Assembly: GCA_002796125.1 (NCBI GenBank) | Contig: PCWA01000035.1 | Coordinates: forward strand, 457-64,456 | Direction: 5' to 3' | Source of the DNA: Candidatus Ghiorseimicrobium undicola | GTDB taxonomy: Bacteria; Omnitrophota; Gorgyraeia; Ghiorseimicrobiales; Ghiorseimicrobiaceae | DNA: 64,000 bases | In this document: piece by piece, positions 14,690 through 46,584 of the stretch | Numbering within the stretch: position 1 is the first letter of the stretch | Layout of the letters: each line of letters starts with the position of its first letter | Notes under the pieces: model-generated | The model's input: the letters and a program-made list of their open reading frames with translations, nothing else | Told to the model about the DNA's origin: nothing | Databases searched by the model: none | Made by a program: the position numbers and the translations under genes

Positions 14690-14879
14690 GACAGTCCTCA
14701 GATTAGGAAATCGGGGGACACAATACTAATTTAATGGCATCTCCCGTAAGGAAAAAGATTAGAAACTACTAATTCTAATAACCGGACAGTCCTCAGATTA
14801 GGAAATCGGGGGACACAATACTAATTTAATGGCATCTCCCGTAAGGAAAAAGATTAGAAACTACTAATTCTAATAACCG
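14690..14879. repeat. Perfect tandem duplication: 2 x 95 bp (14690-14784 and 14785-14879) in the ahbC-hemB intergenic region.
   Basis: The two copies are identical base for base. Each contains a small stem (CGGGGGA...TCTCCCG) and no ORF. Confidence 0.9.
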
Positions 14880-15956: not shown

Positions 15957-17015
15957 GTGGTTGAAAATATGGATAAACAAAATGCGAATTTGAGGATGGT
16001 GGCTTGGGAGGTTACGCGCAGCTGTAACTTATCCTGTGCGCATTGCCGCGCATCCAGTAAACACGGCCCGTATCCGGGCGAGCTTTCCAAAGAAGAATGC
16101 TTTAAGGTCTTAGATGAGATTGTCTCTTTTGCCAAGCCGGTAATTATACTTACAGGCGGTGAGCCGTTATTACGGGAAGATATTTTTGAGATTGCCGCCT
16201 ACGGAAAAAAATGCGGCTTGGTCATGGTAATGGCGCCCAACGGCCTGCTTTTAACAGATGAAAATATCAAAAAAATAATCGCCTCAGGAATTAAGCGCAT
16301 ATCAGTAAGCTTAGACGGGCCTAACGCAAAAATACACGATAACCTAAGGCAGGTGCCCGGTGCATTTGATGGAGCGATTGCAGGGATAAAGCGGGCAAAA
16401 AAATTAGGTCTTGAGTTTCAGATAAATTCTACGATCACCAAAAGAAATATCCAGTATTTGCCAGAGATGATGAAGTTGGCCAAGGATCTGGGGGCGGCAG
16501 CGCATCACATATTTTTGCTTGTGCCGACAGGCCGCGGAAAAGATATGGAAAAAGAAGAGCTCTCGCCTCTCGAATATGAAGAAACACTTAAATTTTTAGA
16601 AAAGGAAAAAAATAATTTCCCTTTGCAGATAAAAGTTACCTGCGCACCGCATTATAATAGAATACTTGCGCAGAATAATCCGCAAACGGCCGGTTCTTTG
16701 CGCGGCAGGGGTTGTATGGGAGGTGTGAGTTTTTGTTTTATCTCACATGTGGGAGAGCTTTCGCCCTGCGGTTATTTAGAATTAAAATGCGGCAATGTCA
16801 GGAAAGAGGGTTTTAAAAAGGCATGGCTTGAGTCGGAAGTATTTAATAATTTACGGGACTTTTCCAGGTTTAAAGGTAAATGCGGCGTATGTGAATTCCG
16901 CTACGTCTGCGCGGGGTGCCGGGCGAGGGCGTACGCAAAATGCGGCGATTATTTGTCGGATGAACCGTATTGTATTTACCAGCCTGCGGTTGCTAAAGAA
17001 CAGAGCGAAACATGA
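15957..17015 (+). CDS. ahbD: Radical SAM / SPASM enzyme of the alternative heme pathway (AhbC/AhbD family; tentatively AhbD, heme synthase).
   Basis: CNLSCAHC radical SAM motif plus a C-terminal auxiliary Cys cluster (CGVCEFRYVCAGC). It lies directly upstream of ahbA/ahbB. Confidence 0.5.
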   Translation: MVENMDKQNANLRMVAWEVTRSCNLSCAHCRASSKHGPYPGELSKEECFKVLDEIVSFAKPVIILTGGEPLLREDIFEIAAYGKKCGLVMVMAPNGLLLTDENIKKIIASGIKRISVSLDGPNAKIHDNLRQVPGAFDGAIAGIKRAKKLGLEFQINSTITKRNIQYLPEMMKLAKDLGAAAHHIFLLVPTGRGKDMEKEELSPLEYEETLKFLEKEKNNFPLQIKVTCAPHYNRILAQNNPQTAGSLRGRGCMGGVSFCFISHVGELSPCGYLELKCGNVRKEGFKKAWLESEVFNNLRDFSRFKGKCGVCEFRYVCAGCRARAYAKCGDYLSDEPYCIYQPAVAKEQSET

Positions 17016-17470
17016 ATAGGGCATTAACAGCTTTGGATAAGAGAATATTGAACAGATTACAGCAGGATATTCCTTTTACGGCCGAGCCCTGGAAAAAAAT
17101 CGCCGGAGAATTGAACATTCAAGAAGCGCGTTTATTAAATCGTATTGCAATTTTGAAGAAACGCGGTATAATCCGGAGAATAGCCGCGGTTTTTAATCCA
17201 AGGAAGGTCGGTTTTGTTTCTACGCTGGCGGCGGCAAAAGTAGCGCCTGAGAATATTGAGGCGGCAGCCAGGGCCGTAAATAAGTATCCGGAAGTTACCC
17301 ATAATTACAAACGGCAGGAGGAATATAACCTTTGGTTTGCCTTGGTCGCCCCAAGCAGGAAAAAAATTACGCTTATAATTAACCGGCTAAAAAAGAACAA
17401 AAAATTTAAAAAAGTTATAGAATTGCCGGCAGTCAGACTCTTTAAGATAGACGTTAGCCTGAAAGTATGA
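17012..17470 (+). CDS. ahbA: Siroheme decarboxylase subunit (AsnC/Lrp-like, NirD/L/G/H family).
   Basis: LDKRILNRLQQDIPFTAEPWKKIAGELNIQEARLLNRIAILKKRGIIRRI is typical of AhbA/AhbB. Confidence 0.75.
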   Translation: MNRALTALDKRILNRLQQDIPFTAEPWKKIAGELNIQEARLLNRIAILKKRGIIRRIAAVFNPRKVGFVSTLAAAKVAPENIEAAARAVNKYPEVTHNYKRQEEYNLWFALVAPSRKKITLIINRLKKNKKFKKVIELPAVRLFKIDVSLKV

Positions 17471-17471
17471 T

Positions 17472-17936
17472 ATGCTCTCGCCGCTGGATAAAAAAATAAT
17501 CAGCCTGGTTTCTAAGGATATGCTTTTGAGCAGTCGGCCATTTAAGGTAATGGCCGGTAAAGCCGGCATCAGCGAAGATAAGCTTTTGGCGCGCCTGAAA
17601 TCCTATAAAAAAAGCGGGATGATGCGCAAGTTTTCCGCCGTCCTGCACCATATAAACGCCGGGTTTAAGCACAACGCGATGTGCGTCTGGAATGTGCCGG
17701 AAAAATCAGCCCTGAATGCCGGAAGGATAATCGCCGCCTTTGACTATGTCAGCCATTGTTATCAGCGGAAGAGGCGCGCTGATTGGAAATATAACCTATA
17801 CGCGATGGTGCACGGAAAGACCAGGGCGGAATGTATTAAGGCCGCAAAAAAAATATCCGGGAAAATCGGTTTTCCCGATTGCAAAATCTTATTTTCATCA
17901 AAAGAGTATAAAAAGACCGGGGTGAAGTACGGCTAA
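17472..17936 (+). CDS. ahbB: Siroheme decarboxylase second subunit (AsnC/Lrp-like).
   Basis: Paralogue of the preceding gene (LDKKIISLVSKDMLLSSRPFKVMAGKAGISEDKLLARLKSYKKSGMMRKF). Confidence 0.7.
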   Translation: MLSPLDKKIISLVSKDMLLSSRPFKVMAGKAGISEDKLLARLKSYKKSGMMRKFSAVLHHINAGFKHNAMCVWNVPEKSALNAGRIIAAFDYVSHCYQRKRRADWKYNLYAMVHGKTRAECIKAAKKISGKIGFPDCKILFSSKEYKKTGVKYG

Positions 17937-17946
17937 AAGGATATTA

Positions 17947-18534
17947 TTGGGCATTATTTTTGGGGGATTATTCTTTTCATTTGGCATTTGTCAGGAATCA
18001 GGCCGGAGGCTTCATTCGGAAGCTTTATCTAATAATGAAACAGTTAAACTGCCTTTTGAAACTATAAGATTTATAAAGCGATCAGTGGGTCAAGGGGATT
18101 ATGTCCAAGATGAGCGTTCGCCTATGGAGGCCTGTGATACAATTAAAAAATCTGTTTGTGAGGATAACCCCGGTTTTGATTGTAAGTTGATCGATTCTGC
18201 CAGAATTGATTCGCCGGAGCAATTTGGTAAATGTGTGGATGGGGCAACTGCGGGAGGATGTTTTACTTGTACATTCAAATGTGATTTCATTGAGTCAAAG
18301 CTAGATATTGCAAATACGGGGGAGAAAAAAGATATTTCTAAAGATGAAGCCTTGAAAATCGCCCAAGAGGTTTGTGAAAAAGAGGGCTGGGAATGGAAAG
18401 ATGTTTATGTAGAATTATACGAAGATAAATGGTGGGGAATACATACCAATGCTGGTGTTTTAGGTGGTAATGCTTTTATTCGTATAGATAAAGAAACAGG
18501 AGAGGTGGTAGAGAAATTTTTTAATCGTGAATAA
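17947..18534 (+). CDS. Hypothetical Cys-rich secreted/membrane protein with a C-terminal PepSY-like domain.
   Basis: Hydrophobic N-terminus, ~10 Cys in the middle, and a PepSY-like C-terminus (ISKDEALKIAQE...WWGIHTNAGVLGGNAFIRIDKETGEVV). Embedded in the heme operon. Confidence 0.3.
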   Translation: MGIIFGGLFFSFGICQESGRRLHSEALSNNETVKLPFETIRFIKRSVGQGDYVQDERSPMEACDTIKKSVCEDNPGFDCKLIDSARIDSPEQFGKCVDGATAGGCFTCTFKCDFIESKLDIANTGEKKDISKDEALKIAQEVCEKEGWEWKDVYVELYEDKWWGIHTNAGVLGGNAFIRIDKETGEVVEKFFNRE

Positions 18535-19849
18535 GATGCCTATTTTTATAAAATCTAAACAATATTTTAGCCAAGCGCAAAAGGTTATCCCCGGTGGGGT
18601 AAACAGCCCGGTGCGGGCGTTTGGGGCTGTGGGCGGGGAGCCTGTTTTTATTGCTAAGGGCAAGGGGGCTTATATTTGGGATGTTGACGGTAATAAATAC
18701 ATAGATTATGTTTTGTCCTGGGGGCCGATGATTTTGGGGCATGCGGATAGCTTGGTAATAAAAGAAGTTACCAAAACCCTAAAAAATGGCACCAGTTTCG
18801 GCGCGCCTACTAAAAAAGAAACCGACTTAGCAAAGTTAATTAGCGAAATTTATCCTTCAATTGAAAAGGTGCGTCTTGTTTCATCCGGGACAGAGGCGGC
18901 AATGAGCGCAATACGGCTTGCGCGCGGGTATACCGGAAAAGATAAGATAATCAAGTTTGAAGGGTGTTATCATGGCCATTTTGACAGCCTGTTGGTTAAG
19001 GCAGGCTCAGGCCTGGCCACTTTTGGCGTGCCGTCATCCGCCGGCGTAACCAAAGGGATCGCGCAGGACACTATAACCTTGCCATTTAATGATATCGTGA
19101 AAGTAAAAGAGGTTATTGAGAAAGAAAAAGATAATCTTGCCTGCGTAATAGTCGAGCCGGTTCCGGCAAATATGGGCGTTATTTTACCAAGGGATAATTT
19201 TTTAAAAGAACTGCGGGAGATTACGCAAAAGTATAATATCGTTTTAATTTTTGATGAGGTAATCAGCGGTTTTCGTCTAGCCTTAGGCGGGGCGCAGGAA
19301 GTTTTTGGGGTTAAGCCGGATTTAACGGTTTTGGGAAAAATTATCGGAGGCGGATTTCCCATAGGCGCTTTCGGCGGGAAAGCCCAAATAATGGGATATC
19401 TCTCGCCGGGTGGGCCGGTATATCAGGCAGGGACGCTTTCCGGAAATCCTGTGGCGGTAAGCGCGGGCCTTGTCACGATAAAAAAACTCACGAAAAAAAA
19501 CGTATATCGGAAATTAGACGCTATAGCAGAAATACTCATTGGAGAGCTTTGTAAGATAAGCGCGAAAGCAGGGCAGAGGATAGTAATAAACCATATTGGT
19601 TCATTGTTTACAATATTTTTTGCCCCGACGCTTCGGTCGGGGCAGGTTGACAAAAATGTAATCTCTAATTATAATGATGTCTTAAATTGCGACCTTAAAA
19701 AGTTTGCCGGCTTCTTCAGGGGCATGCTTAGGGATGGGGTATATTTGGCGCCTTCGCAGTTTGAGGCAAATTTTATCAGCGCCAAACATATATTGAAGGA
19801 TATTAAAAATACCTTAAGTGCGGCTAAAAAAGTTTTAAGATCGTTGTAA
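18527..19849 (+). CDS. hemL: Glutamate-1-semialdehyde 2,1-aminomutase.
   Basis: Class III aminotransferase with SPVRAF, GTFGAP-like and the PLP-lysine region (VLGKIIGGGFPIGAFGG), about 440 aa. Confidence 0.9.
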   Translation: MNKMPIFIKSKQYFSQAQKVIPGGVNSPVRAFGAVGGEPVFIAKGKGAYIWDVDGNKYIDYVLSWGPMILGHADSLVIKEVTKTLKNGTSFGAPTKKETDLAKLISEIYPSIEKVRLVSSGTEAAMSAIRLARGYTGKDKIIKFEGCYHGHFDSLLVKAGSGLATFGVPSSAGVTKGIAQDTITLPFNDIVKVKEVIEKEKDNLACVIVEPVPANMGVILPRDNFLKELREITQKYNIVLIFDEVISGFRLALGGAQEVFGVKPDLTVLGKIIGGGFPIGAFGGKAQIMGYLSPGGPVYQAGTLSGNPVAVSAGLVTIKKLTKKNVYRKLDAIAEILIGELCKISAKAGQRIVINHIGSLFTIFFAPTLRSGQVDKNVISNYNDVLNCDLKKFAGFFRGMLRDGVYLAPSQFEANFISAKHILKDIKNTLSAAKKVLRSL

Positions 19850-19868
19850 AAACGGAGAGGAGGAAGCT

Positions 19869-20663
19869 GTGGCGCAGGGCTTTAAAAAAATAGTTATCAT
19901 AATATCAATATTGTTTGTTTTGCTTGTAGTTTTTTCAGTTGCCGCTATTGTTTATACCGAGAGGCCGAAATTTTGTATCAGCTGCCATATAATGGACCCT
20001 TATTACGCTTCATGGGAAAAATCCGCGCATAAAGAAGTGAATTGCCTGGAATGCCATTATGAGCCGACATTAACCGCGCATGCCTTAGGCAAGATTAACG
20101 GTTTAGTTCAGGTAGCGCAGTATCTGACTAAGCGGTATTATGGCAGGCCTACGGCTGAAGTCAGCGATGCTTCATGCTTGAGGGGCGGATGCCACCTAAG
20201 AGAAGAGATTGCGGGCAAGGAAATACTTTTTAAAGATAAGATCCGGTTTACGCACGCCAGCCACCTTGAGAGCGTTAAAGGAGGCATTGAGTTGCGCTGT
20301 ACCAGCTGCCATGCGCAAATAACCGATGATGAGCATATCGCCATAGATAAAAATGCCTGTTATATCTGCCACTTTAAAAATGTAAATGCTAAAGAGCTAA
20401 AATTTGAGTGCCTAAAGTGCCACAGTATTAAGGTATCCTCAGGCGAGCATAAGGAGTACGCGGAAAGCCCGATGGCATGTTCGGACTGCCACGGTGAGAT
20501 AAAATTAGGCGATGGAAATGTGCGCGGCCAGATTTGTTTATTTTGTCATGCCGACAAAGAGGCAATAGAAAACATAAAAGACAAAGAATTGATGCATAAA
20601 GCGCATATAAAAGAAAATAAAGTGGATTGCATCAGTTGTCATGATTTTATTGAGCATAAATAA
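19869..20663 (+). CDS. Membrane-anchored NapC/NirT/NrfH-family multiheme cytochrome c (8 CxxCH plus 1 CX4CH); putative quinol dehydrogenase.
   Basis: N-terminal TM followed by FCISCHIMDPYYASWEKSAH, the hallmark of NapC/NirT. Eight CxxCH are counted (CISCH, CLECH, CTSCH, CYICH, CLKCH, CSDCH, CLFCH, CISCH), plus CLRGGCH. Confidence 0.75.
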   Translation: MAQGFKKIVIIISILFVLLVVFSVAAIVYTERPKFCISCHIMDPYYASWEKSAHKEVNCLECHYEPTLTAHALGKINGLVQVAQYLTKRYYGRPTAEVSDASCLRGGCHLREEIAGKEILFKDKIRFTHASHLESVKGGIELRCTSCHAQITDDEHIAIDKNACYICHFKNVNAKELKFECLKCHSIKVSSGEHKEYAESPMACSDCHGEIKLGDGNVRGQICLFCHADKEAIENIKDKELMHKAHIKENKVDCISCHDFIEHK

Positions 20664-20702
20664 TTAACCGGATTATTAGAAAAAAAGAAAGGGGATTTTG
20701 AA

Positions 20703-21233
20703 ATGGCAAAAAAAAGTTTAATTTTAACCATTGGCTTATTGTTTATTTTTTGCGGATTATCCGTAGCCGAAGGAGAGCATAAGTATATCGGTGTTAAGAA
20801 GTGTTCAATGTGCCATCAGTCTGATGCAAAAGGCAACCAGTACAAACAATGGCTCTCTACCGCGCATGCTAAGGCTTATGAAAGATTGGGCAGCCCAGAA
20901 GCTAAAGAAACTGCCGAAAAAGCAGGAGTATCGGGCAATCCTCAAGAAGTAGGCCAATGTTTAAAGTGCCATATAACCGCCTATGGCGCAGATGGAAGCT
21001 TATTAGATTCCGGATTTAAGAAAGAAGACGGTGTGCAGTGCGAAACATGCCATGGAGCAGGAAGCGATTATATGGCAATGAGCGTTATGCAGGATAGGGA
21101 TAAGGCAATTGCCGCGGGCTTGATTATGCCTACGGAAGAGGTCTGCGTTAAATGCCATAATGAAGAAAGCCCGAATTTTAAAGGTTTCAATTTTGACGAG
21201 TATTATCCAAAAATAGCGCACCCAAGGCCGTAA
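20703..21233 (+). CDS. Periplasmic tetraheme cytochrome c.
   Basis: Signal peptide and four CxxCH (CSMCH, CLKCH, CETCH, CVKCH). Confidence 0.75.
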   Translation: MAKKSLILTIGLLFIFCGLSVAEGEHKYIGVKKCSMCHQSDAKGNQYKQWLSTAHAKAYERLGSPEAKETAEKAGVSGNPQEVGQCLKCHITAYGADGSLLDSGFKKEDGVQCETCHGAGSDYMAMSVMQDRDKAIAAGLIMPTEEVCVKCHNEESPNFKGFNFDEYYPKIAHPRP

Positions 21234-21343
21234 TAAAGGCCTTAATAATAAGGATGCAAGCTTGCTGTTGACGGGTTTTTTTGAGATGTTGAATCTTTTA
21301 ATCTGTTGAATCTGCCCCCAGCCGCCTGCATCCGTTTTTAAAA

Positions 21344-22405
21344 ATGTCGATTAAACAAACTAAAATCTGGAAATTTTTTTCATCCATGCAATTGGCAATA
21401 TGGCTATTGGCCGTTATTGCTCTTTTTTCTCTTGTGGGGACCCTGATACCGCAAAATCAGCAGGCCGCTGAATATATTTCGCGCTACGGCCATACGGGTT
21501 ATGAAATTCTCCTAAAAACCGGCCTGCTGAATATGTATTCTTCATGGTGGTTTATTTTTCTTATGGGGTTGCTTTCTTTGAATTTAAGTGTTTGTCTTAT
21601 TAATAGATTTTCGCCGCGCCTGCGCCTTCTCGGGACTTTTTTATCGCATTTCAGCATACTTATGATATTAGCCGGCGCTTTGACAGGAATGTTTTTTGGA
21701 GAAAAGGGCTATGTGCAGATTAAAGAAGGCCAAAGCATAGATTCATTTATCTCCAAAGGAAAACCGGTAGCCTTAAATTTTTCCCTAAAACTGGAAGATT
21801 TTATTTATGAAGAATACATCGATGACGAGGAAAATCTTTTGGTCTATGATAATGAGGGAGCATTGCTTTTAGAGCTCAACGCAGGGGATGATAAAAATAC
21901 CGCAATTGCTGATAGCGGCTACAGCATTAAGATATTGCGCTACGTGCCTGACTTTTCCATGGACTTATCAACAAAGGAAGTCGTAAGCCGGTCACAGGAG
22001 CCGATAAATCCGGCATTGCAGGTTGCGCTTACGGATAAAGATGGCAATTCCGTAGAGTCTTGGGTTTTTGCCCGCTATCCTGATGTCCACATGTCGGCGG
22101 AGAAAAAATTCAATTTTAAATATCAATGGAAGATGCGCAGGCCCAAGGAGTTTATAAGCAGGGTTGCGGTTATAAAAGATAGAGAGATAGTCAGTGAAAA
22201 AGATATAAAGGTAAACAGCCCTTTAAAATACGGCGGCTATGCTTTTTTTCAATCCAGCTATGATAAAGAGAGCTTGGCATGGTCGGGCTTACAAATAGTT
22301 AAGGATCCGGGCGTGCCTATTGTTTATCTGGGTTTTATTTTGCTTATATTTGGGCTGTCGATTATATTTTATGTCAACCCTGCCCTAAGAAGCCGGGCGA
22401 CATAA
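21344..22405 (+). CDS. resB: Cytochrome c biogenesis protein ResB/CcsB (System II), short form.
   Basis: N-terminus KFFSSMQLAIWLLAVIALFSLVGTLIPQ is the conserved ResB start. A periplasmic domain and C-terminal TMs (LWFGLSIIFYV) follow. Confidence 0.75.
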   Translation: MSIKQTKIWKFFSSMQLAIWLLAVIALFSLVGTLIPQNQQAAEYISRYGHTGYEILLKTGLLNMYSSWWFIFLMGLLSLNLSVCLINRFSPRLRLLGTFLSHFSILMILAGALTGMFFGEKGYVQIKEGQSIDSFISKGKPVALNFSLKLEDFIYEEYIDDEENLLVYDNEGALLLELNAGDDKNTAIADSGYSIKILRYVPDFSMDLSTKEVVSRSQEPINPALQVALTDKDGNSVESWVFARYPDVHMSAEKKFNFKYQWKMRRPKEFISRVAVIKDREIVSEKDIKVNSPLKYGGYAFFQSSYDKESLAWSGLQIVKDPGVPIVYLGFILLIFGLSIIFYVNPALRSRAT

Positions 22406-22454
22406 AGTTTAATCCGGAGTCAATTCGCACCGCCTTCAGCGGTGCCCATTGAAT

Positions 22455-22581
22455 AATAACAATATCCCTTGCCTAAGCATCGGGGTAAATCTCTTTGATA
22501 TTTACCCCGATAGGCTGCGGGATCAATTCGCGCAAATAACTTACGTCGCTCTTCGAGCTCCGTAAGTTATGCGCTCATTGA
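22455..22581 (+). repeat. Copy 1 of a structured intergenic repeat element, ending 9 nt before the ccsA start codon.
   Basis: Core cccttgcctaaRcatcggggtaaat-ctctttgat-atttaccccgataggctgcggg, followed by a second hairpin (aacttacg...cgtaagtt) and a ctcattga terminus. Shared with 39497-39607 and 46585-46768. Confidence 0.8.
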
Positions 22582-22590
22582 GGTGATAAA

Positions 22591-23361
22591 ATGCTTCCCG
22601 TATACTTAAATATCAGTTTTGCCGCGTATTTTTTATCAATGTTTTTTTATTTCGCGGCTTTATTTTTTAAACATAAAGCCTTGTCTCTGGCCGCGAGGAT
22701 TTTCTTGTGCCTTGGGGTTGCGGGTTTGACGGCTTATATGCTGCTGCGTTGGCAAGTAGCGCAAAGGCCGCCACTTTCTAATATGTTTGAGTCTGTGGTA
22801 TTGTTTGCTTGGGTGGTGGGCCTGGCAGGATTTTTTATCGATATGCGCTACAGGCTTAAGATTCTGGCAGCATTAGTTTCAGCCTTGAGCCTATTAACGC
22901 TCGGTATCAGTTTTTTATTGGATAAAGAGATAGTACCTTTATTGCCTGCTTTAAAAAGTAATTGGCTTACTATTCACGTATTAACATGTTTTATCGGTTA
23001 TGCCGCCTTGACCGTTGGTTTTGTGGCTAGCGTTGTTTTGTTGTTAACTGATGAAAAAACAGATATCTTGGATGCCATAAGCCATAAAACAATCGCCTTT
23101 GGATTTTTATTTCTGACATTAGGTATTGTAAGCGGAGCGGTCTGGGCAAATTCGGCCTGGGGTACATATTGGAGCTGGGACCCGAAAGAGACATGGTCAT
23201 TGATTACCTGGTTTATATACGCGATATACCTGCATGCGCGGTTCAGAAGAGGCTGGAAAGGGAAAAAAGCCGCCTGGTTTTCTATTATTGGGTTTTTGGC
23301 TATGTTATTTACTTATTTTGGAGTAAACTATTTATTGAGAGGGCTGCATAGTTATGCCTAG
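22591..23361 (+). CDS. ccsA: Cytochrome c-type biogenesis protein CcsA/ResC (heme-handling, System II).
   Basis: WWD-domain signature WANSAWGTYWSWDPKETWSLITW, conserved His residues and eight TMs. Confidence 0.9.
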   Translation: MLPVYLNISFAAYFLSMFFYFAALFFKHKALSLAARIFLCLGVAGLTAYMLLRWQVAQRPPLSNMFESVVLFAWVVGLAGFFIDMRYRLKILAALVSALSLLTLGISFLLDKEIVPLLPALKSNWLTIHVLTCFIGYAALTVGFVASVVLLLTDEKTDILDAISHKTIAFGFLFLTLGIVSGAVWANSAWGTYWSWDPKETWSLITWFIYAIYLHARFRRGWKGKKAAWFSIIGFLAMLFTYFGVNYLLRGLHSYA

Positions 23362-24205
23362 AGCGTTTGGAGTCAAAAATACTATAATTTTAATTTTTAT
23401 ATGTGCTTTTATTTTTCCGGCGCTTTCCTTTAGCGCGCTTGTATTTGCGCAGGAGAGCGAATTTAAGGAAAAATGCCGCTCCTGCCATAAGGAGGTTTTG
23501 GATAAATGGGATATGTCAGCTATAAAGCATTATCCTTATCGTGAAGGAAAGTGTGAGTCTTGTCATGCGGCAGAGCACAAAAAATTTACGGCGGAAGCGG
23601 GCAAGCCATGTTTGATTTGTCATGATTTAACGTCTGAAAAAATAAAGAACAGCCATTTTTCTGTAAATTTAAGTGATGTCGATTGTTTTTCATGCCATTA
23701 TACGCATAGCGCGGAGAAAAAAGGATTATTGAAAGAAAGCGTGCATATGCCGTTCTCTTCCGGCATGTGCGAAATGTGCCATAGCGTTGACGGGGGTAAA
23801 ATAAAAGTAAAAGATATGACTAAAAAATCGTGCCTTGCCTGTCATGGTACTTTGGTAAGCAAGGACGATTCAGTTAAGCATATGGGCTATGAAATGCAGG
23901 AATGTGTGGATTGTCACAATCCACATACTTCAAGCCACGAAAAACTTTTAAAAAGCTCTGTTTCTGAGAACTGCTTTCAATGTCATGATAGAGAACAGGC
24001 TAAGAAGCACCCATACGATGTTAGCGTATCTTCGCGTATTTTAAATAATATGCTTGACAAAGATAAGAAAATATGGTTAACTTATAGCAACAAAATAAGT
24101 TGTACGAGCTGTCATCTTCCGCATTCCGCAAGGATCCCATTTTTGCTGAGAGATTCTCTTGATCAGGGGGAGCTTTGCAATCATTGTCATATAAAAAGTA
24201 AGTAA
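23354..24205 (+). CDS. Decaheme cytochrome c (periplasmic/membrane-associated).
   Basis: N-terminal hydrophobic segment and ten CxxCH in 283 aa. Confidence 0.8.
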   Translation: MPRAFGVKNTIILIFICAFIFPALSFSALVFAQESEFKEKCRSCHKEVLDKWDMSAIKHYPYREGKCESCHAAEHKKFTAEAGKPCLICHDLTSEKIKNSHFSVNLSDVDCFSCHYTHSAEKKGLLKESVHMPFSSGMCEMCHSVDGGKIKVKDMTKKSCLACHGTLVSKDDSVKHMGYEMQECVDCHNPHTSSHEKLLKSSVSENCFQCHDREQAKKHPYDVSVSSRILNNMLDKDKKIWLTYSNKISCTSCHLPHSARIPFLLRDSLDQGELCNHCHIKSK

Positions 24206-24222
24206 AGTAGAGGAGTGAAAGC

Positions 24223-25221
24223 ATGGAAAAGAGAAATATTTTTTTTGAAAGATTAGTGAAATTTTTCACGGTGATACTTTTCACTATTTGTTCGCTATTT
24301 TTTGTCGGTTTTCTGCCATCTTTTTGCGAGTCTGCCCCTTCGGGGAAAATAACACATAAATACTTATTTGAGATAAAACCCGATGCAAATAAAATCGGCG
24401 CTTTAAACCAGCCGGCAGATATAGCGGTTGACGTATCAGGTAATTTATATGCTGCTGATACGGTAAATAGCCGCATAGTAGTTTTTGATGCCTCGGGAAA
24501 TGCTAAATTCGCTTTCGGCAGGCATGGAACCGGAAAGGAAGAATTAAGCGCTCCTATGGCTTTAACCGTTGATTCAAAAAATAAAAAGGTTTATGTGGCT
24601 GATTCTTCAAATTACCGCATACAGATATTTAAGACCGACGGCATTTTTCTATCATCCATTGATTTGAATAAAGATAAGACTGGCGAAGAAAAAGATGTGC
24701 GCCCCATAGGGATTGCCGTAGCCGGAGGCGGCAACATCTATGTATCCGATGCGGATAATAACTATATCCGTATATATTCTTCGGATGGTAAATTTTTATC
24801 GAAATTCGGCGGATTTGGATCGGAGAACGGCAAGTTCTGCATACCGGTAGGCTTATTTGTAGATGCGGATGATAAGTTATACGTAGTGGATATGAATAAT
24901 TCCCGGCTGCAGGTTTTTGATAATCAAGGGAATTTTCTATTTAAAATCGGCTCTGCCGGAGACGCAAGAGGCGATTTTGGCAGGCCTAAAGATGTATGCG
25001 TGGATGAGAATGGGTTTATTTATGTTTCTGACGGAGCAAATTTGGTCATCCAGATTTTTGATAAGAACGGTGAATTTATTGACTTAATAGGTGCGGAGAA
25101 AGAAGTTGATTTACAGTTTGCTTCTCCGTTTGGTTTGGCGGTATTAAATGGACGCCTTTATATAACGGACAGATGGAGAAATAGTATCAGAGTTTATGAA
25201 ATTGAGGAGGTGAGTAAATGA
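24223..25221 (+). CDS. NHL-repeat six-bladed beta-propeller protein, secreted.
   Basis: Signal peptide and repeated NHL motifs (YVADSSNYRIQIF, YVSDADNNYIRIY, YVVDMNNSRLQVF, YVSDGANLVIQIF, YITDRWRNSIRVY). Confidence 0.8.
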   Translation: MEKRNIFFERLVKFFTVILFTICSLFFVGFLPSFCESAPSGKITHKYLFEIKPDANKIGALNQPADIAVDVSGNLYAADTVNSRIVVFDASGNAKFAFGRHGTGKEELSAPMALTVDSKNKKVYVADSSNYRIQIFKTDGIFLSSIDLNKDKTGEEKDVRPIGIAVAGGGNIYVSDADNNYIRIYSSDGKFLSKFGGFGSENGKFCIPVGLFVDADDKLYVVDMNNSRLQVFDNQGNFLFKIGSAGDARGDFGRPKDVCVDENGFIYVSDGANLVIQIFDKNGEFIDLIGAEKEVDLQFASPFGLAVLNGRLYITDRWRNSIRVYEIEEVSK

Positions 25222-26318
25222 AAAAGGTTTTTGTTTTGCTGGCGGGGTTTATTTTTGTGGTCGCGGCTTACGGAACAGCCGTAGCCGGTGTTGCCAATAC
25301 CGATCACGATATGTATGCAGAGGGCAAGGGCACAGATCCCAATGTATGCGGTTACTGTCATATTCCGCATAACGCGGTTGGTAATAAAATCTGGTCTGAC
25401 TGGGGTAATGAAGCACAGCTTACATCAGGCCCTTCCAGCCCGATAGGGAACATGTGTTATACCTGCCATGACGGGACAGCAACTAATGCGGGCCAGACTA
25501 CAGTATTCAATACGGCTCTTCAGCAGCATAAAGTAGGCGGGACCGCCGACTGTAATAGTTGCCACACCGTTCATGATAATACTAACGGTAAATTTGTTGG
25601 TATTGTCGCGACTCAGAGCGCAAATACAGAATTTGCCACTTACTGCGAAACTTGCCATGATGCGACTCAGTATCCCGGGGCAGAGATTCACGGTGACCAC
25701 ATTGCAGGCAGTGAGCATCCCTATAAAGATACTGGTGCGTTGCTGGATACCAGCTGTAACGCCTGTCATCAGATGCACGGAGCTGTTAATTACACAACCG
25801 GTTCTTTAACTAATCCGATATTAAAAGCGGATAATACTGATTCGGCGTTTTGCGCCGGATGCCACCCCGCTAAAATACAGGCAACTTCAGGAGCTAATAA
25901 ACATCCTGCTAATTTAACATCGGGAGGGGCTTGGGGTAAGGTTGATTGTCAAGCCTGTCATGACGTGCATCAACCTAATGATCCGGGCAGGCCGTTTGTA
26001 TTACTGGATGATAATGTTGATTCTGCTTATTGCCTTAGTTGTCATGATGCTTCAAGCACGACTAATGGCCCTAAGATTGGAGCCAATAGCCATCCTGTGG
26101 GGGTCGGTTTTAGTGTTACGCCTACGGATCCGACGCTTACTCCTGCCGGAGATGCCATTGATGATAATAACACCGGCGGGCCGGATTATCCGGGAAATAG
26201 TTCGAGCATAGTTTGCGAAAGCTGTCATTCCATACACAGCAAAGGAGTAGCGGCTCCGCTCTTGCGTATTACCGCAGGCGCGGGCACATTATGTATTAAT
26301 TGTCATCCGAACAAATAG
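25218..26318 (+). CDS. Multiheme cytochrome c, paralogue 1 of a tandem family (10 CxxCH).
   Basis: Signal peptide, then HDMY-x-GKGTDPNVCGYCHIPH...KIWSDWGNEAQLTSGPS...IGNMCYTCHDGT, the N-terminal block shared with 26509, 27736 and 28911. Confidence 0.8.
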   Translation: MKKVFVLLAGFIFVVAAYGTAVAGVANTDHDMYAEGKGTDPNVCGYCHIPHNAVGNKIWSDWGNEAQLTSGPSSPIGNMCYTCHDGTATNAGQTTVFNTALQQHKVGGTADCNSCHTVHDNTNGKFVGIVATQSANTEFATYCETCHDATQYPGAEIHGDHIAGSEHPYKDTGALLDTSCNACHQMHGAVNYTTGSLTNPILKADNTDSAFCAGCHPAKIQATSGANKHPANLTSGGAWGKVDCQACHDVHQPNDPGRPFVLLDDNVDSAYCLSCHDASSTTNGPKIGANSHPVGVGFSVTPTDPTLTPAGDAIDDNNTGGPDYPGNSSSIVCESCHSIHSKGVAAPLLRITAGAGTLCINCHPNK

Positions 26319-26347
26319 ATGCAGTAATGTTTTAGATGATAATAGGG

Positions 26348-26377
26348 AAGGGCTACTATTGTTTGATGGTAGCCCTT
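26348..26377 (+). terminator. Hairpin (aagggctac / gtagccctt), a weak Rho-independent terminator candidate between cytochrome paralogues 1 and 2.
   Basis: 9-bp perfect stem with an 11-nt loop, followed by ttccc (short U-tract). A second GC hairpin (cttcggcg...cgccgaag) lies at about 26456-26485. Confidence 0.35.
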
Positions 26378-26508
26378 TTCCCACAAAAAGATTTTAACCC
26401 GCCTTCGCGGAATTCTCCGCCTTGTAAGGCCGGGATGGATAGCTGAGGAATTCCGCTTCGGCGAGGTTTTCGCCGAAGGGAAGAGAAAGATTCTACGCTC
26501 TTACAGGC

Positions 26509-27678
26509 GTGGAGCTTCAAAAAAATTTAATGAAAATTATACATACCGGAATTATTTTGACGTCATCAATTTTTTTATTCTCTATAGCCGATTTGTCTTT
26601 TGCCGGAGTCGCCGGATCCCGGCACGACATGTATTTTTTGAGCAAAGGAACCGACCCTAATCCCTGCGCATACTGCCACATACCGCATAATGCCGCGGGT
26701 GATAAAATCTGGTCTGACTGGGCAAATGAGGCTCAACTCACCAGCGGCCCGTCAACGACCATTGGTAATATGTGCTATACCTGCCATGACGGGACTGCCA
26801 GCTATCGCGGCTTAAATAGCGTATTTAATCTTTCTCTGCAGCAGCATAAAATATCTGCCGGCCGGGATTGCGATATGTGCCACAGTGTGCATGATAACAC
26901 TAACGGGCAATTTATGAATATAGCGGGTAAGCAGAATTCTTATTGTGCCGCCTGTCATGATGCTGCGGTTAATGCCGGAGGGTTAGGCGACCATGTAAGC
27001 TATCCCGCGAATCATCCAAATTGCGGAGGGTGCCATGGAGTATTTGAACTGGATTCATTAGGGGCAAACGGCGATGATGCCAGCTGCCACCTTTGTCATG
27101 CTAAAGCTCACGGCGCGGTAAATTATACGGCAGGATCGATAACTAATCCTATATTAAAATCCAATAATACGGATAGCCAGTATTGCGGGCTTTGCCATCC
27201 GGATTTGGTCCAGGCGAATTCAGGCGGCAGCAAGCATCCGGCCAATACATCAGGCAGTGCTTATGGTAAGATAACATGCCAGTCATGCCATGACCCGCAT
27301 CAGCCCGGGATAACAAACCAGCTGTATCTATTGACGGACAGCAATATAGACTCGCAGATGTGTATTGATTGTCATAACGGTTCCAGCGGCCCGGACATCG
27401 GGCATTCTCATCCTAATCAAGTTAGTTTTGGCACTATTGTTCCTGTAGATGCTTCGCCGCAGACAGGTACCCCTCCGGGTAATCAAATAAATGATAATGA
27501 TTATGATGATGGACATTCGGATCCGGATACTTACCCTGATTATCCCGCTAATTCCGCCAGCATGATATGCGAAACCTGTCATAGCGTGCATCGCAAAGCG
27601 GATAATGCCGGAATAAAACTTTTAAGAATAACCAATACTAATTCGGCATTGTGCTTAAACTGCCACACGGACAAGTAA
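26509..27678 (+). CDS. Multiheme cytochrome c, paralogue 2 (11 CxxCH).
   Basis: Same N-terminal block (SRHDMYFLSKGTDPNPCAYCHIPH...) and shared C-terminus LLRITNTNSALCLNCHTDK. Confidence 0.8.
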   Translation: MELQKNLMKIIHTGIILTSSIFLFSIADLSFAGVAGSRHDMYFLSKGTDPNPCAYCHIPHNAAGDKIWSDWANEAQLTSGPSTTIGNMCYTCHDGTASYRGLNSVFNLSLQQHKISAGRDCDMCHSVHDNTNGQFMNIAGKQNSYCAACHDAAVNAGGLGDHVSYPANHPNCGGCHGVFELDSLGANGDDASCHLCHAKAHGAVNYTAGSITNPILKSNNTDSQYCGLCHPDLVQANSGGSKHPANTSGSAYGKITCQSCHDPHQPGITNQLYLLTDSNIDSQMCIDCHNGSSGPDIGHSHPNQVSFGTIVPVDASPQTGTPPGNQINDNDYDDGHSDPDTYPDYPANSASMICETCHSVHRKADNAGIKLLRITNTNSALCLNCHTDK

Positions 27679-27735
27679 GTATAGAGTATTGGGTATTGAG
27701 TATAGAGTATCGAGTACGAGAATTAAAAATTAAAA
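27676..27735. repeat. 7-bp-periodic tandem repeats (gagtat-type, then attaaaa/gaatcaa-type) filling the spacer between cytochrome paralogues 2 and 3.
   Basis: gtaagta tagagta ttgggta ttgagta tagagta tcgagta cgag aattaaa aattaaa aATGaag aatcaag aatcaaa. Confidence 0.8.
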
Positions 27736-28914
27736 ATGAAGAATCAAGAATCAAAAACTGCAGGTTATTTGAAAATTCCCTTAGCCATTAGTTTAATAGT
27801 TCTGGCTTATAATTTAAGTTTCGCCGGGGTGTCCGGGACAGTCCATGACATGTATTCTTTAGGTAAGGGAACAGACCCGAACCCCTGCGGCTATTGCCAT
27901 ATGCCGCATAAGGCCGCAGGAGAGAAAATCTGGTCCGACTGGGGCAATGAGACGCAATTAACCAGCGGTCCATCAACCGCCATAGGTAATATGTGCTATA
28001 CCTGCCATGATGGGACAGTGACTAATGTGGGTTTATCGACAGCGTTTAACGCTTCCCGGCAGCAGCATAAAATACCTGCCGGGCAGGATTGCGATATGTG
28101 CCATAGCGTGCATGATAATACGAACGGAAAGTTTATGAATGTTGTAAAGAAACAGCAAACATATTGCGCCGCCTGCCATGATGCAATAGTTAATGCTGGG
28201 GGGCTTGGCGATATGACTTCAGCTGGAAATCATCCCAGTTATTGGGCGTCTACGCCCGCTCATAATATAAATGGTTCACCCACCGGCGCATTCTGTACGG
28301 CTTGTCATGAACGCGTGCATTATTCTCAATTTGACTGCAGGGGATGTAATTTTTGCCATAAAGCACATGACGGGACTAATTATTCAACCGCGCAAGTGCC
28401 TAATCCGATTTTAAAAGCCGACAATACTGATAGTCAGTATTGTGCCTCATGCCATCCATATAAGATTCAGGCATCAAGCGGTGGTGATAAACATCCGGCA
28501 AACCTTGCGGCAGCTGGCAACTGGGGAAAGGTTATTTGCCATGATTGCCACGATCCGCACCAGCCCGGTGTTACGAACCATCCTTTTATATTAACGGATA
28601 CTAATGTTGATTCGGCAATGTGTATTAATTGCCACGATAATACAGCCGGGCCTGAGATAGGAGTTTCGCATCCGCATCAGATTCCTTTTGGCAGTATAGT
28701 TCCGACTGATGGCTCTGCTGCGGCTGGTACGCCCGCTGCGAATGCAATAGATGATGACGGAGAAGACGGAGTTGATTATCCATTAAATTCAGCTAATCTT
28801 ATTTGTGAGACGTGTCATGGAACACACCGCAGAGTTGATGATGCGGGGACTAAACTACTTAGAATAACCAATACTAATTCGGCATTGTGCCTAAACTGCC
28901 ACACGGATAAATGA
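27736..28914 (+). CDS. Multiheme cytochrome c, paralogue 3 (11 CxxCH).
   Basis: Same family. The last ~80 nt are nearly identical to paralogue 2. The N-terminal MKNQESK is encoded by heptamer repeats. Confidence 0.8.
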   Translation: MKNQESKTAGYLKIPLAISLIVLAYNLSFAGVSGTVHDMYSLGKGTDPNPCGYCHMPHKAAGEKIWSDWGNETQLTSGPSTAIGNMCYTCHDGTVTNVGLSTAFNASRQQHKIPAGQDCDMCHSVHDNTNGKFMNVVKKQQTYCAACHDAIVNAGGLGDMTSAGNHPSYWASTPAHNINGSPTGAFCTACHERVHYSQFDCRGCNFCHKAHDGTNYSTAQVPNPILKADNTDSQYCASCHPYKIQASSGGDKHPANLAAAGNWGKVICHDCHDPHQPGVTNHPFILTDTNVDSAMCINCHDNTAGPEIGVSHPHQIPFGSIVPTDGSAAAGTPAANAIDDDGEDGVDYPLNSANLICETCHGTHRRVDDAGTKLLRITNTNSALCLNCHTDK

Positions 28915-30086
28915 TGAAATTAAAAATGAAAAATAAAAAATCTAAAACCGTGACTTATTTTAAAATTCCCTTAGCCGTCAGTTTATTTTTTTTGATTTAT
29001 GATTTAAGTTTTGCGGGGGTGTCTGGGACAGTCCATGATATGTACACACAGGGTAAAGGCACTAGCCAGGAGGTATGCGCTTATTGCCATATTCCTCATC
29101 AGGCCAAAGGTGATAAAATCTGGTCTGACTGGGCAAATGAGGCTCAACTCACCAGCGGCCCGTCAACAACCATAGGCAATATGTGCTATACCTGCCACGA
29201 CGGGACAGTGACCAATATAGGCTTATCAACGGTATTTAATGCTTCGCTGCAGCAGCACGTTATGCCTGCCGGCCAGGATTGCGATATGTGCCATTCTGTG
29301 CACGATAATACTAACGGTAAGTTTATGAATGTCGGCTTAACCGAGAACTATTATTGCGCCAGTTGCCATAATGCTGCGGTAAACGCTGGCGGGCTGGGTG
29401 ATTATACGAATTCAGGAAACCATTTTAATTATGGCGTATATGACGGCGCCCATCCCAAAAGGTTTGGCTCCGGCTGTTATAGCTGCCATTATGATCATAT
29501 GCAAAGCATCGTGAGTTTAGGCAGTTGTAAATTCTGCCATGAAGCTCATGCCGGAGCGAATTATTCTACGCCATCGGTATCTAAACCTATCTTGCGTATT
29601 GATAACACCGATAGCGCATTTTGTATATCTTGTCATCCTGCGATGCAGCAGGCGACGACAGGCGGCAATAAGCATCCCGCTAATTTGACTGCCGGAGGAA
29701 ATTGGGGCATAGTGGATTGCCATGACTGCCATGATGTACATCAGCCGAATAATCCTAATAATCCTTTTATATTACGTAACCAAAATACCGATTCCGGATA
29801 CTGCGCATATTGTCACGAGGCGATTAATGAAACCTATGGGCCTAAAATCGGTAATGGGCATCCGGTAAATATTGCTTTCGGAGCCTATCCTCCGATTGAT
29901 GCGTCTTTGACGCCTGCGGGCAATGCTATAGATGATGACGCATATTACGGGATAGATTATCCGGCAAATTCATCCGATATGATATGCGAAACATGCCATT
30001 CGGTGCATCGAAAGGGCGTGGCAAGCCCTCTATTGCGCATGAGCATTACGGATAGCTCGTTATGCCTTAACTGTCATCAGATGTAA
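28911..30086 (+). CDS. Multiheme cytochrome c, paralogue 4 (11 CxxCH).
   Basis: Same family. Its start overlaps the stop of paralogue 3. A 56-nt stretch is identical to paralogue 2 (gataaaatctggtctgactgggcaaatgaggctcaactcaccagcggcccgtcaac). Confidence 0.8.
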   Translation: MMKLKMKNKKSKTVTYFKIPLAVSLFFLIYDLSFAGVSGTVHDMYTQGKGTSQEVCAYCHIPHQAKGDKIWSDWANEAQLTSGPSTTIGNMCYTCHDGTVTNIGLSTVFNASLQQHVMPAGQDCDMCHSVHDNTNGKFMNVGLTENYYCASCHNAAVNAGGLGDYTNSGNHFNYGVYDGAHPKRFGSGCYSCHYDHMQSIVSLGSCKFCHEAHAGANYSTPSVSKPILRIDNTDSAFCISCHPAMQQATTGGNKHPANLTAGGNWGIVDCHDCHDVHQPNNPNNPFILRNQNTDSGYCAYCHEAINETYGPKIGNGHPVNIAFGAYPPIDASLTPAGNAIDDDAYYGIDYPANSSDMICETCHSVHRKGVASPLLRMSITDSSLCLNCHQM

Positions 30087-30132
30087 TGCGGTTGTTGGCA
30101 GTGAGTTATGAATTAGGCGAGATAAAAGAAAA

Positions 30133-31572: not shown

Positions 31573-31611
31573 TGTTTAGAATATATAATGCAGAATGTAG
31601 AATGTAAAATT
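31570..31611. repeat. 7-bp-periodic tandem repeat (tagaatg-type) spanning the stop of the 13-heme cytochrome and the start of the beta-barrel gene.
   Basis: taatgtt tagaata tataatg cagaatg tagaatg taaaatt. Confidence 0.8.
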
Positions 31612-39399: not shown

Positions 39400-39496
39400 G
39401 CGTGGTAGGATTTATCGAATTTGATGAGCATAATAATGAGCATGCTTTTATATTTTAATTCTTTGGTTGGTTGCCCGCTAAGTTACGGGGTCATTT

Positions 39497-46545: not shown

Positions 46546-46584
46546 AGAGTTGCAAGTAGATAGTGAACGGAAATTTAACCTTTT

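Follow-up and report, generated by a model that had tools for sequence, protein, structure and literature searches.

An Uncatalogued Family of Modular Hairpin Repeats with Covarying Stems in the Spacers of Omnitrophota Genomes

Introduction

The described systems that come closest to the elements reported here are REP units, which carry a conserved GT[AG]G tetranucleotide at their 5' head, Correia repeats, elements of the IS200/IS605 type, and BOX elements. IS200/IS605 elements and their non-autonomous palindrome derivatives have differing sub-terminal hairpins at their two ends and a strand or orientation bias, and the elements themselves are without terminal inverted repeats or target duplication. 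BOX elements of Streptococcus pneumoniae are built as boxA-boxB(n)-boxC, lie in intergenic DNA near gene starts, and are expected to fold into stable stem-loops once transcribed. The REP, BIME, and REPIN sequences of Enterobacteria and Pseudomonas, treated together with RAYT in two accounts (PMC3116915, PMC3337134), are described there as dispersed extragenic palindromes that are co-transcribed with flanking genes, and the Correia repeat enclosed elements (CREE, or NEMIS) of Neisseria are presented in PMC2649163 as non-coding units of ~100-150 nt that lie near gene starts and are co-transcribed.

The DNA analyzed here is a 64,000-nucleotide stretch of contig PCWA01000035.1 from Candidatus Ghiorseimicrobium undicola (Omnitrophota), to which we refer as the window. 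Exact protein matches assign it to this organism, an Omnitrophica MAG sampled at Crystal Geyser. Omnitrophota, a phylum without cultivated members, are mostly ultra-small cells, and their genomes are compact; repeated non-coding DNA is therefore unexpected there. We report that three copies of a structured element in the window are members of an uncatalogued and large family of hairpin repeats, modular in build, across Omnitrophota.

Results

Copies in the Window

Three plus-strand copies lie at 22463-22581, 39494-39607, and 46582-46768. The motif CTCATTRA forms the 3' end of all three and is 0-9 nt from an ATG, the distance being 9 nt for ccsA (22591), 0 nt for the gltD-like gene (39608), and 0 nt for a sigma-70 family gene (46769). 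Each copy consists of two modules, a first hairpin (H1) followed by a second (H2). The H1 layout is tCCCTyGCCTaarc-ATCGGGG(T)AAAT-loop-ATTT(A)CCCCGAT-AGGCtkCGGG and that of H2 is (C/T)AATTCG-GCGC/GGCC-AAAT-AACTTAYG...CRTAAGTT-AT-GCGC/GGCC-TCATT(G/A)A. In total the window holds four H1 units and four H2 units, as follows.

22421-22452, plus strand: solo H2-like module, CAATTCG-CACCGC-CTTCA-GCGGTG-CCCATTGA, following the pattern AATTCG..YCATTRA
22463-22522, plus strand: copy 1 H1, cmsearch 71.5 bits, E 2.5e-16
22523-22581, plus strand: copy 1 H2, TCAATTCG-GCGC-AAAT-AACTTACG...CGTAAGTT-AT-GCGC-TCATTGA
39494-39551, plus strand: copy 2 H1, cmsearch 83.7 bits, E 1.5e-19
39552-39607, plus strand: copy 2 H2, ending in CTCATTAA and followed at once by the ATG (39608) of the gltD-like glutamate synthase gene
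46582-46640, plus strand: copy 3 H1, cmsearch 72.3 bits, E 1.5e-16
46640-46668, plus strand: small linker hairpin of copy 3, TAGGTT...AACCTA, constrained fold -6.3 kcal/mol
46669-46728, minus strand: inverted, diverged H1 of copy 3, cmsearch 49 bits, E 2.1e-10
46729-46768, plus strand: copy 3 H2, with the flanks AATTCG-GCGC...GCGC-TCATTGA and a different inner stem (CTCGCC/GGCGG)

The solo module starts 15 nt past the resB stop codon and ends 10 nt before the H1 of copy 1; as single-stranded DNA it folds at -10.2 kcal/mol (z -4.7). The same layout, with the end of a previous H2, 12-15 nt, and then an H1, recurs at four other loci (L109, L196, L202, and L152). The H2 of copy 1 has a DNA fold of -17.7 kcal/mol (z -6.3) and ends in CTCATTGA at 22574-22581, with the ccsA ATG at 22591; the Shine-Dalgarno (SD) sequence of ccsA, GAGGTG, shares the last two bases (GA) of this module. 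In copy 3 the linker hairpin sits between the two H1 units, which face each other in plus and minus orientation 28 nt apart, and the inverted unit folds at -15.4 kcal/mol as single-stranded DNA. The H2 of this copy again ends in CTCATTGA, and the sigma-70 family gene begins at the very next base.

The likeness of the three copies is not due to chance. Repeat detection placed them in one group, blastn of copy against copy gave E values of 1e-12 to 1e-17, and an H1 covariance model built from 90 family members recovered them with 71.5-83.7 bits (E 1e-16 to 1e-19), compared with 15 bits for the best unrelated match of the same model in the window. RNA folding of copies 1, 2, and 3 gave z-scores of -7.2, -7.8, and -5.7. 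These data agree with the original prediction of three structured plus-strand copies ending in ctcatt(g/a)a no more than 9 nt from an ATG, and with both paired changes that it had named, GGGGTAAAT/ATTTACCCC against GGGGAAAT/ATTTCCCC and CTTACG/CGTAAG against CTTATG/CATAAG. Further paired changes among the window copies are GCGC/GCGC against GGCC/GGCC and CAAT/ATTG against TAAT/ATTA. Two details required correction: the left boundary of copy 1, given as 22455, lies at ~22463, and the hairpin thought to be inserted in copy 3 is indeed additional structure, but consists of the inverted H1 together with the small hairpin at 46640-46668.

Structure and Covariation of the Two Modules

H1 is a hairpin of 58 nt, and 90 distinct units align nearly free of gaps. 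The conserved parts are the foot YCCC/GGGR, a pyrimidine internal loop (TY / TKC), an AANC bulge, and the apical loop AAATCTCTTCGATATTT, with foot and internal loop together kept as CCCTYGC / GCTKCGGG, and the 7-bp middle stem is hypervariable and strictly Watson-Crick. Standard pairs fill 97.2% of the 1634 pair cells in the 90 units, and two-sided changes occur at 11 of the 19 pairs. Double-change cells number 253 compared with 73.5 +/- 5.9 after shuffling, a value that none of 500 shuffles reached, and when the 3' partner was slid by 1-3 columns as a control only 36-60% of cells remained paired.

H2 is a hairpin of 30-110 nt with a variable interior between the conserved flanks TYAATTCG and CTCATTRA. 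In 26 units of the long type, RNAalifold independently predicts a hairpin of 17 pairs, in which 99.5% of cells are paired and double changes occur at 9 pairs, this set having been picked by a constrained-fold caller that requires a complementary 4-nt base, so that the outermost pairs are biased by selection. Here too the double-change cells (58) exceed the shuffled value (13.9 +/- 2.8), and slid controls are 25-41% paired. The pair beside the conserved flanks covaries, as in tCAATT..ATTGa, tTAATT..ATTAa, and tAAATT..ATTTa, and the conserved unpaired part of the module is a 2x2 pyrimidine loop (TC/TC).

A constraint acting on the sense RNA should tolerate G·U pairs but not A·C, and rare mismatches of both kinds in equal measure would point to the decay of perfect copies or to a strand-symmetric constraint. 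In H1 there are 13 G·U-type and 29 A·C-type cells among the 1634, or 11 and 16 when the terminal pair is left out, and H2 contains 3 G·U in 442 cells. Folding as single-stranded DNA with DNA parameters found both strands stable. The unpaired nucleotides of the loops, the bulge, and the internal loop are kept across distantly related genomes, and they stay on the same DNA strand of the element in both of its orientations relative to local transcription.

Size and Distribution of the Family

A metagenome collection was scanned with the pattern AAATCTCTTN{1,2}GATATTTN{9,13}CTKCGGG, which was drawn from positions common to the window copies and a related Omnitrophota contig (L102) and leaves every stem position free. 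This pattern matched 99 further stretches. The covariance model then gave 136 H1 matches in 630 kb of these metagenome loci and also matched contigs of named Omnitrophota MAGs (L029, L033, L025, L044, L101, and L102); several of the metagenome loci could be assigned to Omnitrophica through exact protein matches. Exact protein look-up identified at least two more loci of Ca. Ghiorseimicrobium undicola itself (L114 and L160). The window contig, extended, has four H1 units at three loci in ~84 kb, a density from which any copy number per genome is an extrapolation, and the 10 kb added to the source contig on either side contain no further H1.

Several independent short assemblies of the same population start or break inside the element in blastn comparisons, which is the usual signature of a multi-copy repeat. 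One contig (L006) has an alternative left flank that matches nothing else fetched and is either a chimera or another locus.

No counterpart turned up in Rfam or in the literature search. At gathering thresholds the sole Rfam match in the window is a tRNA at 49000-49073, and in E-value mode the region 22380-22620 gave chance-level matches only (sraL at 13.1 bits, against a gathering score of 39, and sR38). A literature search for repeats or RNA motifs of Omnitrophota returned no description of the H1-H2 family. Six-frame translations of the element, used to pick up any spurious ORF calls on other copies, had no match in a protein database, and a viral contig collection contained no match. A first hairpin-1 pattern had no match in a genome contig collection. 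A similar one had none in a metagenome contig collection, yet occurred in 12 of 18 contigs fetched by protein look-up, which places the source samples outside that collection. In 80 Omnitrophota loci anchored on PPDK, blastn of the element found nothing, and the diverged copies there were found by the covariance model only.

Modularity and Genomic Context

The modules, among them H1 subtypes, H2, and further hairpins, are joined in both orientations and make up inverted pairs and arrays. Some 40 of the 136 H1 matches are diverged, with subtypes that differ in loops or feet. Inverted pairs of different subtypes, 15-50 nt apart, occur at six loci (L184, L182, L124, L189, L106, and L202), and H1 tandems of the same orientation at two (L130 and L131); an array around a tRNA gene in L131 comprises four H1 model matches, a fifth H1-like hairpin recognized by eye, an H2, and a third type of hairpin. 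An expanded H1 with an apical insertion of ~62 nt is kept in two genomes (L101 and L033), and at position 4055 of L176 an H1 scaffold carries at its apex a hairpin that is found elsewhere as the interior of H2. Canonical H2 units come after the 3' end of an H1 in 74 of 91 cases, and about eight genuine ones stand alone or after other hairpins.

Approximately 62 of the 96 distinct copies that match the pattern are in sense orientation directly upstream of a protein-coding gene; in ~38 of these an AGGAGG-like SD begins 0-3 nt past the foot of H2, with normal 4-8-nt spacing to the start codon, and in ~24 the start codon itself lies 0-4 nt past the foot without an SD, all of these counts resting on crude ORF calls and on the reading of N-termini. 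The SD-less flush AUG cases include the well-recognizable N-termini of DnaJ, L3, S8, S13, L35, and EF-G. The downstream genes recognizable by N-terminus are housekeeping genes: rplC, rpsH, rplN, rpsM, rpmI, rpmG, and rpmB; fusA, infC, rbfA, pheT, dnaJ, and cspA; and accA, metK, gap, fabF, dapA, and purQ. By the same crude ORF calls, the upstream stop codon is in many cases 0-20 nt from H1, the element then filling the entire spacer between co-directional genes, and in ~18 copies it is 0-7 nt away. Between co-directional protein genes the sense orientation prevails by approximately 55 to 7-10, and the flush end of H2 is kept even where the other side has a spacer of 90-300 nt.

Other placements are also found. 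In ~10-15 copies an H1 with a short H2 lies antisense to a tRNA gene, the H2 foot being 0-6 nt from the convergent tRNA 3' end, and three tRNA-adjacent copies are situated between two tRNAs of one operon. In L118 a copy lies antisense between mnmE and folE, where CTCATTTA overlaps the last mnmE codons AAA-TGA, and in L029 and L044 a copy directly precedes a consensus TTGACA-16-TAAAAT promoter. The same gene bears the element in different genomes in two cases (L119/L183 and L179/L188). The element seems to end "exactly at start codons" because it occupies the short stretch that separates a stop codon, tRNA end, or promoter from the functional site that follows. At two tRNA-adjacent loci (L125 and L128) the "H2" is built from the tRNA 3' end and an inverted copy of that end beside H1.

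Gain, Loss, and Homogeneity

The nearest relatives with the same gene order (L099, L101, and L102) share 75-77% sigma-factor identity with the window. The spacer between the PPDK and sigma-factor genes, which holds copy 3 in the window, is 107 or 132 nt long in L099 and L101 and has no element. A full, diverged copy occupies the ProRS-PPDK spacer of L102 and is absent from that of L101 and the window, and in L101 a copy separates a 190-aa ORF from a ParA-like gene where the orthologous spacer of the window reads TAG-AGGAGGTTAAAAT-ATG. This presence and absence at orthologous spacers of relatives indicates that the element is gained and lost spacer by spacer; the comparisons yielded no clean empty site with exact junctions at the level of strains. 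They show the elements to be dispersed repeats that come and go at orthologous positions.

The stem ATCGGG(G)T / ACCC(C)GAT is common to the window copies and to L114 and L160 from the same organism. L118 has this stem too, its genome assignment being drawn from H1/H2 similarity only, and other genomes have other H1 stems. On contig Ga0209515_10000340, the type A copies at L121 7723 and L176 683 share another stem, and the diverged H1 subtypes on that contig differ. In L104, L180, and L166, unrelated genes are preceded by H1+H2 units that are almost the same, and in the orthologous gene pair L179/L188 the H1 subtypes differ. These stems show that copies are homogeneous within a genome and different between genomes, with a grouping by genome and not by gene. 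Grouping by genome together with turnover corresponds to the population behavior of REP/REPIN-type repeats, as far as it is set out in PMC3116915 and PMC3337134. The wobble pattern, the occurrence of both orientations, and the grouping by genome favor a constraint that would not be specific to the sense transcript.

Several further readings of the element were considered and set aside. No ORF of at least 20 aa ends at an in-frame TGA/TAA, as a translationally coupled upstream ORF would require; the spacing from TTGCNT to GATATT, read from the sequence, is 21-22 nt, which does not suit a sigma-70 promoter within H1; and the H1 loop is equally conserved in SD-less copies, which does not fit a pairing of this loop with the SD. 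K-turn or GNRA-like loops do not agree with the sequences, and an integron attC site is at odds with flanking genes that are housekeeping and lie in conserved operons.

Discussion

On balance we lean toward a mosaic of the REP/BIME kind, whose hairpin modules propagate as DNA and persist only where a stop codon, tRNA end, or promoter lies on one side and the next ribosome-binding site (RBS) on the other. The family would be mobilized as DNA by a trans-acting enzyme that probably recognizes the conserved hairpin foot and the loops in single-stranded DNA, in the manner of RAYT or IS200/IS605. The same conservation of loop, bulge, and internal loop across distant genomes could equally reflect a conserved RNA-protein interaction. 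In compact genomes, the surviving insertions would be only those that spare the stop codon and the RBS. The hairpins, being co-transcribed, would also form in mRNA and may alter its stability or processing; such effects on RNA would have arisen as a by-product or been exapted later, and would not amount to a regulatory switch for particular genes.

Features that do not fit a plain selfish repeat are the strong sense bias, the H2 end flush with whichever functional site comes next, and the "H2" of L125 and L128 that is made from a tRNA 3' end and its inverted copy. Part of this bias in orientation and flush placement is explained by purifying selection, because only a few positions between stop codon and SD are free in operon spacers; purifying selection does not obviously explain the flush cases with long upstream spacers. 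The left flanks (70 nt in 87 copies) contain no conserved target sequence, and show only A/T richness at -15 to -7 and a conserved T-R-Y at -3 to -1, which pairs with the 3' foot and so is part of the hairpin, not a target. Terminal inverted repeats are likewise lacking, as T-R-Y-CCCT... at one end does not recur in inverted form in ...CTCATTRA at the other, and the flanks of the three window copies have no target-site duplication in common. A transposase was sought by tblastn with an IS200 TnpA sequence in the fetched loci, 2.1 Mb in all, and none was found, the best match having an E of 1.6; this is a weak test in that RAYTs are single-copy and such a gene would probably lie outside these fragments.

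The original prediction had preferred a shared 5'-leader or cis-regulatory RNA and had named a REP/MITE-like element with a preference for gene starts as the alternative. Its central observation, a repeated, structured element with stem changes that preserve the fold, holds massively in ~100 further copies, and the covariance model and wider search that it had proposed found copies in metagenomes and several Omnitrophota MAGs with the structure conserved, with no match for the element in the proposed Rfam comparison. Its leader reading is disfavored by orientation, gain and loss, near-pure Watson-Crick stems, and the many ordinary SDs. The REP/MITE-like alternative is closer to the evidence, although a classical MITE, with its terminal inverted repeats and target-site duplication, does not describe the family. 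Loss of structure, or random occurrence inside genes and in both orientations, had been put forward as the mark of a plain MITE; both orientations do occur, and the further copies retain the conserved structure. The lack of an SD, taken as notable at two of the three window genes, needs no special explanation, because SD-less starts are the majority in this genome, with an SD-like motif at only 23 of 60 window genes.

A broader RNA reading deserves separate attention, in which H1-H2 is a cis-acting RNA selected for its function as an intercistronic or 5'-UTR element for processing, stabilization, or insulation. A nuclease or RNA-binding protein would recognize the H1 loops and the H2 foot would define or protect the downstream 5' end, leaving an mRNA that is SD-first or near-leaderless; the opposite orientation would punctuate tRNA operons, and duplication may still spread the family. 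This accords with the ~62 of 96 copies that are sense with H2 flush against an SD or ATG, with the many copies inside ribosomal-protein and translation-factor operons (rplC, rpsH, rplN, rpsM, rpmI, rpmG, fusA, and infC), with the ~24 SD-less cases in which AUG follows the hairpin foot within 0-4 nt, and with the H2 ends 0-6 nt from tRNA 3' ends, as well as with the unpaired nucleotides conserved in distant genomes and a gene that bears the element in different genomes (L119/L183). It is opposed by the lack of any excess of G·U over A·C in ~2000 pair cells, by H1 units and whole elements that are antisense to local transcription, by presence and absence at orthologous spacers, by the homogeneity of stems within a genome, and by two copies upstream of a promoter. 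We consider this reading less likely than the mosaic, but the bias in orientation and the way H2 abuts its neighbor make a selected role in RNA processing, stabilization, or insulation a serious rival to it or an addition. Less probable still, in our judgment, is a phylum-wide transposable "operon punctuation" RNA, in which the H1 loops are the binding site of a conserved factor and the downstream 5' end is made by cleavage at the H2 foot. This would give SD-first or essentially leaderless mRNAs even in ribosomal-protein operons, with the opposite orientation marking tRNA 3' ends, and would account for an H2 end that in every case abuts (0-6 nt) an SD, AUG, stop codon, or tRNA end.

Two readings based on transcription signals fare worse. 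The element could be a propagating promoter-plus-leader cassette, or "mobile promoter," that supplies expression signals to the downstream gene, with the A/T-rich stretch 5' of H1 as a -10 box and a start at the H1 foot. Many copies do have GATAAT/TATAAT-like strings 5-8 nt before YCCC within the A/T-rich -15 to -7 region, and sense orientation beside the RBS would be apt for such a cassette. We nevertheless find it very doubtful: there is no -35 signal and little information upstream of -4, the stop codon lies 0-7 nt from H1 in ~18 copies, so that the "box" overlaps stop codons within operons, a consensus scan of the three window copies gave no consistent promoter, and antisense and tRNA-adjacent copies would fire into tRNA genes. 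Factor-independent, possibly bidirectional terminators or attenuators after genes and tRNAs would be in keeping with hairpins just past stop codons and tRNA 3' ends and before promoters, and a signal that works in both directions would be well served by Watson-Crick stems able to fold on either strand. Such a role is scarcely credible for copies that have no T-run after any hairpin, in a scan of the three window regions that returned 0 terminator-like sites, and that lie within essential ribosomal-protein operons, where termination would be harmful; it also leaves the conserved loop and bulge sequences unexplained.

If the family is REP-like DNA, as we favor, REP/BIME biology reaches a further phylum, where the units are designed differently; if instead its RNA undergoes processing, the element would be a mobile device for segmenting operons. 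The family also raises the question how a double hairpin of 110-190 nt can be harmless when flush with the RBS or start of genes for ribosomal proteins, EF-G, DnaJ, and sigma factors. The family, which has over 100 covarying copies and is absent from Rfam, is a phylum-specific and easily modeled marker, and it explains the recurrent assembly breaks in Omnitrophota MAGs.

Comparison with Known Systems

The BOX elements resemble this family in their modular build, with modules variable in number and order, but there is no sequence relation, and the single modules of BOX are not hairpins that covary on a scaffold conserved throughout a phylum. Generic cis-regulatory RNAs would be expected to have a strand-specific substitution pattern and a fixed orientation; the family has neither, yet it has a sense bias. 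With elements derived from IS200/IS605 it shares distinct hairpins at the two ends, here H1 on the left and H2 on the right, both supported by covariation, as well as an orientation bias and the lack of terminal inverted repeats or duplication, and the recognized feature would similarly be a hairpin shape with a few conserved unpaired bases. It differs from them in that no conserved tetra- or pentanucleotide target adjoins the left end and in that H1 also occurs alone, inverted, and arrayed; in the weak tblastn test, none of the loci showed a TnpA or TnpB gene.

The CREE, as presented in PMC2649163, likewise form long hairpins, which RNase III can take as substrates. In that account their presence varies between related genomes, as it does here, and they influence adjacent gene expression, as the present elements could. 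Unlike the CREE of that description, which are a single element with terminal inverted repeats, a TA duplication, and an IHF site, the family has at least two independent hairpin modules and lacks both the terminal repeats and the duplication.

Compared with REP (~20-40 nt), the units are larger: H1 has 58 nt, in which internal loop, bulge, and apical loop are all conserved, and H2 has 30-110 nt. The GTAG/GTGG head is absent, the first bases of the H1 consensus being T-R-Y-CCCTYGC and those of its reverse complement YCCCGMAGC. In REPINs mirror copies pair together, whereas the inverted partners here are different subtypes, and the strong sense bias and the H2 end flush with an RBS, start codon, or tRNA end are also unlike REP. 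What the family does have in common with REP/BIME, within the scope of the accounts cited above, is a make-up of dispersed extragenic palindromic units co-transcribed with their neighbors, the occurrence as single units, inverted pairs, and mosaic clusters of different unit types, stems that vary by lineage with complementarity kept in copies homogeneous within a genome, and vertical persistence combined with turnover at individual sites. Units in alternating orientation, as pairs or mosaic clusters, are seen in copy 3, at the six inverted-pair loci, and in L131. We therefore do not file the family under REP, MITE, Correia, or IS200/IS605-derived elements; it works most like REP/BIME.

Leader Replacement and Structural Variants of the Element

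Two relatives of the window genome that have the same gene order (L099 and L101) carry no H1-H2 repeat element, i.e. the 58-nt hairpin module H1 with the variable hairpin H2, before their sigma-factor gene. Both instead share a conserved CCGAGYGAAGCGAGGGCTWATG leader, which includes a GCGAAGC mini-hairpin motif (positions 9975-10003 in each). In the window genome the element stands in place of this conserved leader stretch.

H1 itself also occurs in a variant form, in which the apical loop is interrupted by about 62 nt of inserted, structured sequence (GAATTCC...GGAATT hairpins). This variant is kept in two different genomes at unrelated loci:
L101 15865-15984, H1 with apical insertion
L033 13665-13790, H1 with apical insertion

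At the tRNA-Met and tRNA-Phe loci L125 and L128, the hairpin adjoining H1 is composed of the 3' acceptor end of the tRNA itself and an inverted copy of that end, for example CGCCACCAACTTTTGCC-CAA-GGCAAAAGTTGGTGGCG. It looks as if flanking sequence had been duplicated in inverted orientation at the junction. In two Omnitrophota MAGs an A-tract and a consensus TTGACA-16-TAAAAT promoter directly follow the end of H1-H2 (..CTCACTAA):
L029 8973-9200, H1-H2 directly before A-tract and promoter
L044 15811-16000, H1-H2 directly before A-tract and promoter

At a further locus (L130, 900-3100) there are four H1-H2 units of two subtypes, and each of these units stands before one member of a tandem set of Flp-type pilin genes; here element and pilin gene may have been duplicated together.

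Contigs with Altered Flanks

In a JGI contig (L006, 1-190), a different left flank is joined to the inverted-H1/H2 part of the copy that precedes the sigma-factor gene, followed by that gene. The flank has no match among the other fetched sequences. Either the contig is a chimera mediated by the repeat, or it represents a second locus or a strain variant. Another contig (L015, region 1140-2349) begins within the copy before ccsA and contains ccsA together with the beginning of the cytochrome gene next to it; at about position 1150 it turns to unrelated genes, namely a FabH-like C terminus and a 23S rRNA-intervening-sequence protein, and is probably a chimeric assembly.

Other Repeats and the Respiratory Gene Block

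The repeat search also returned a 95-nt unit (GACAGTCCTCAGATTAGGAAATCGGGGG...AATAACCG; family D9), perfectly duplicated in tandem within the 351-nt spacer upstream of a hemB-like gene (14922), and A/T-rich runs of 7-nt period, of AATACTC and AATGTAG type, which recur both between genes in a number of spacers and within two ORFs (families D14, D15 and D17):
14690-14879, 95-nt tandem duplication
15326-15355, 39996-40025 and 43769-43798, 7-nt periodic runs
31580-31611 and 40978-41038, further 7-nt periodic runs

One such run occupies much of the window's ProRS-PPDK spacer, where the relative L102 has the hairpin element instead.

Pfam lists place a large respiratory gene block at 15957-34331, comprising:
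alternative heme biosynthesis, NirD/L-like and radical-SAM genes
cytochrome c maturation, ResB/CcsA
a multihaem cytochrome family of at least seven paralogues
an NHL-repeat protein and a porin-like gene

Four of the cytochrome paralogues share 60-79% DNA identity with one another (families D1-D3). The block has the look of an outer-membrane electron conduit, found here in an Omnitrophota genome.
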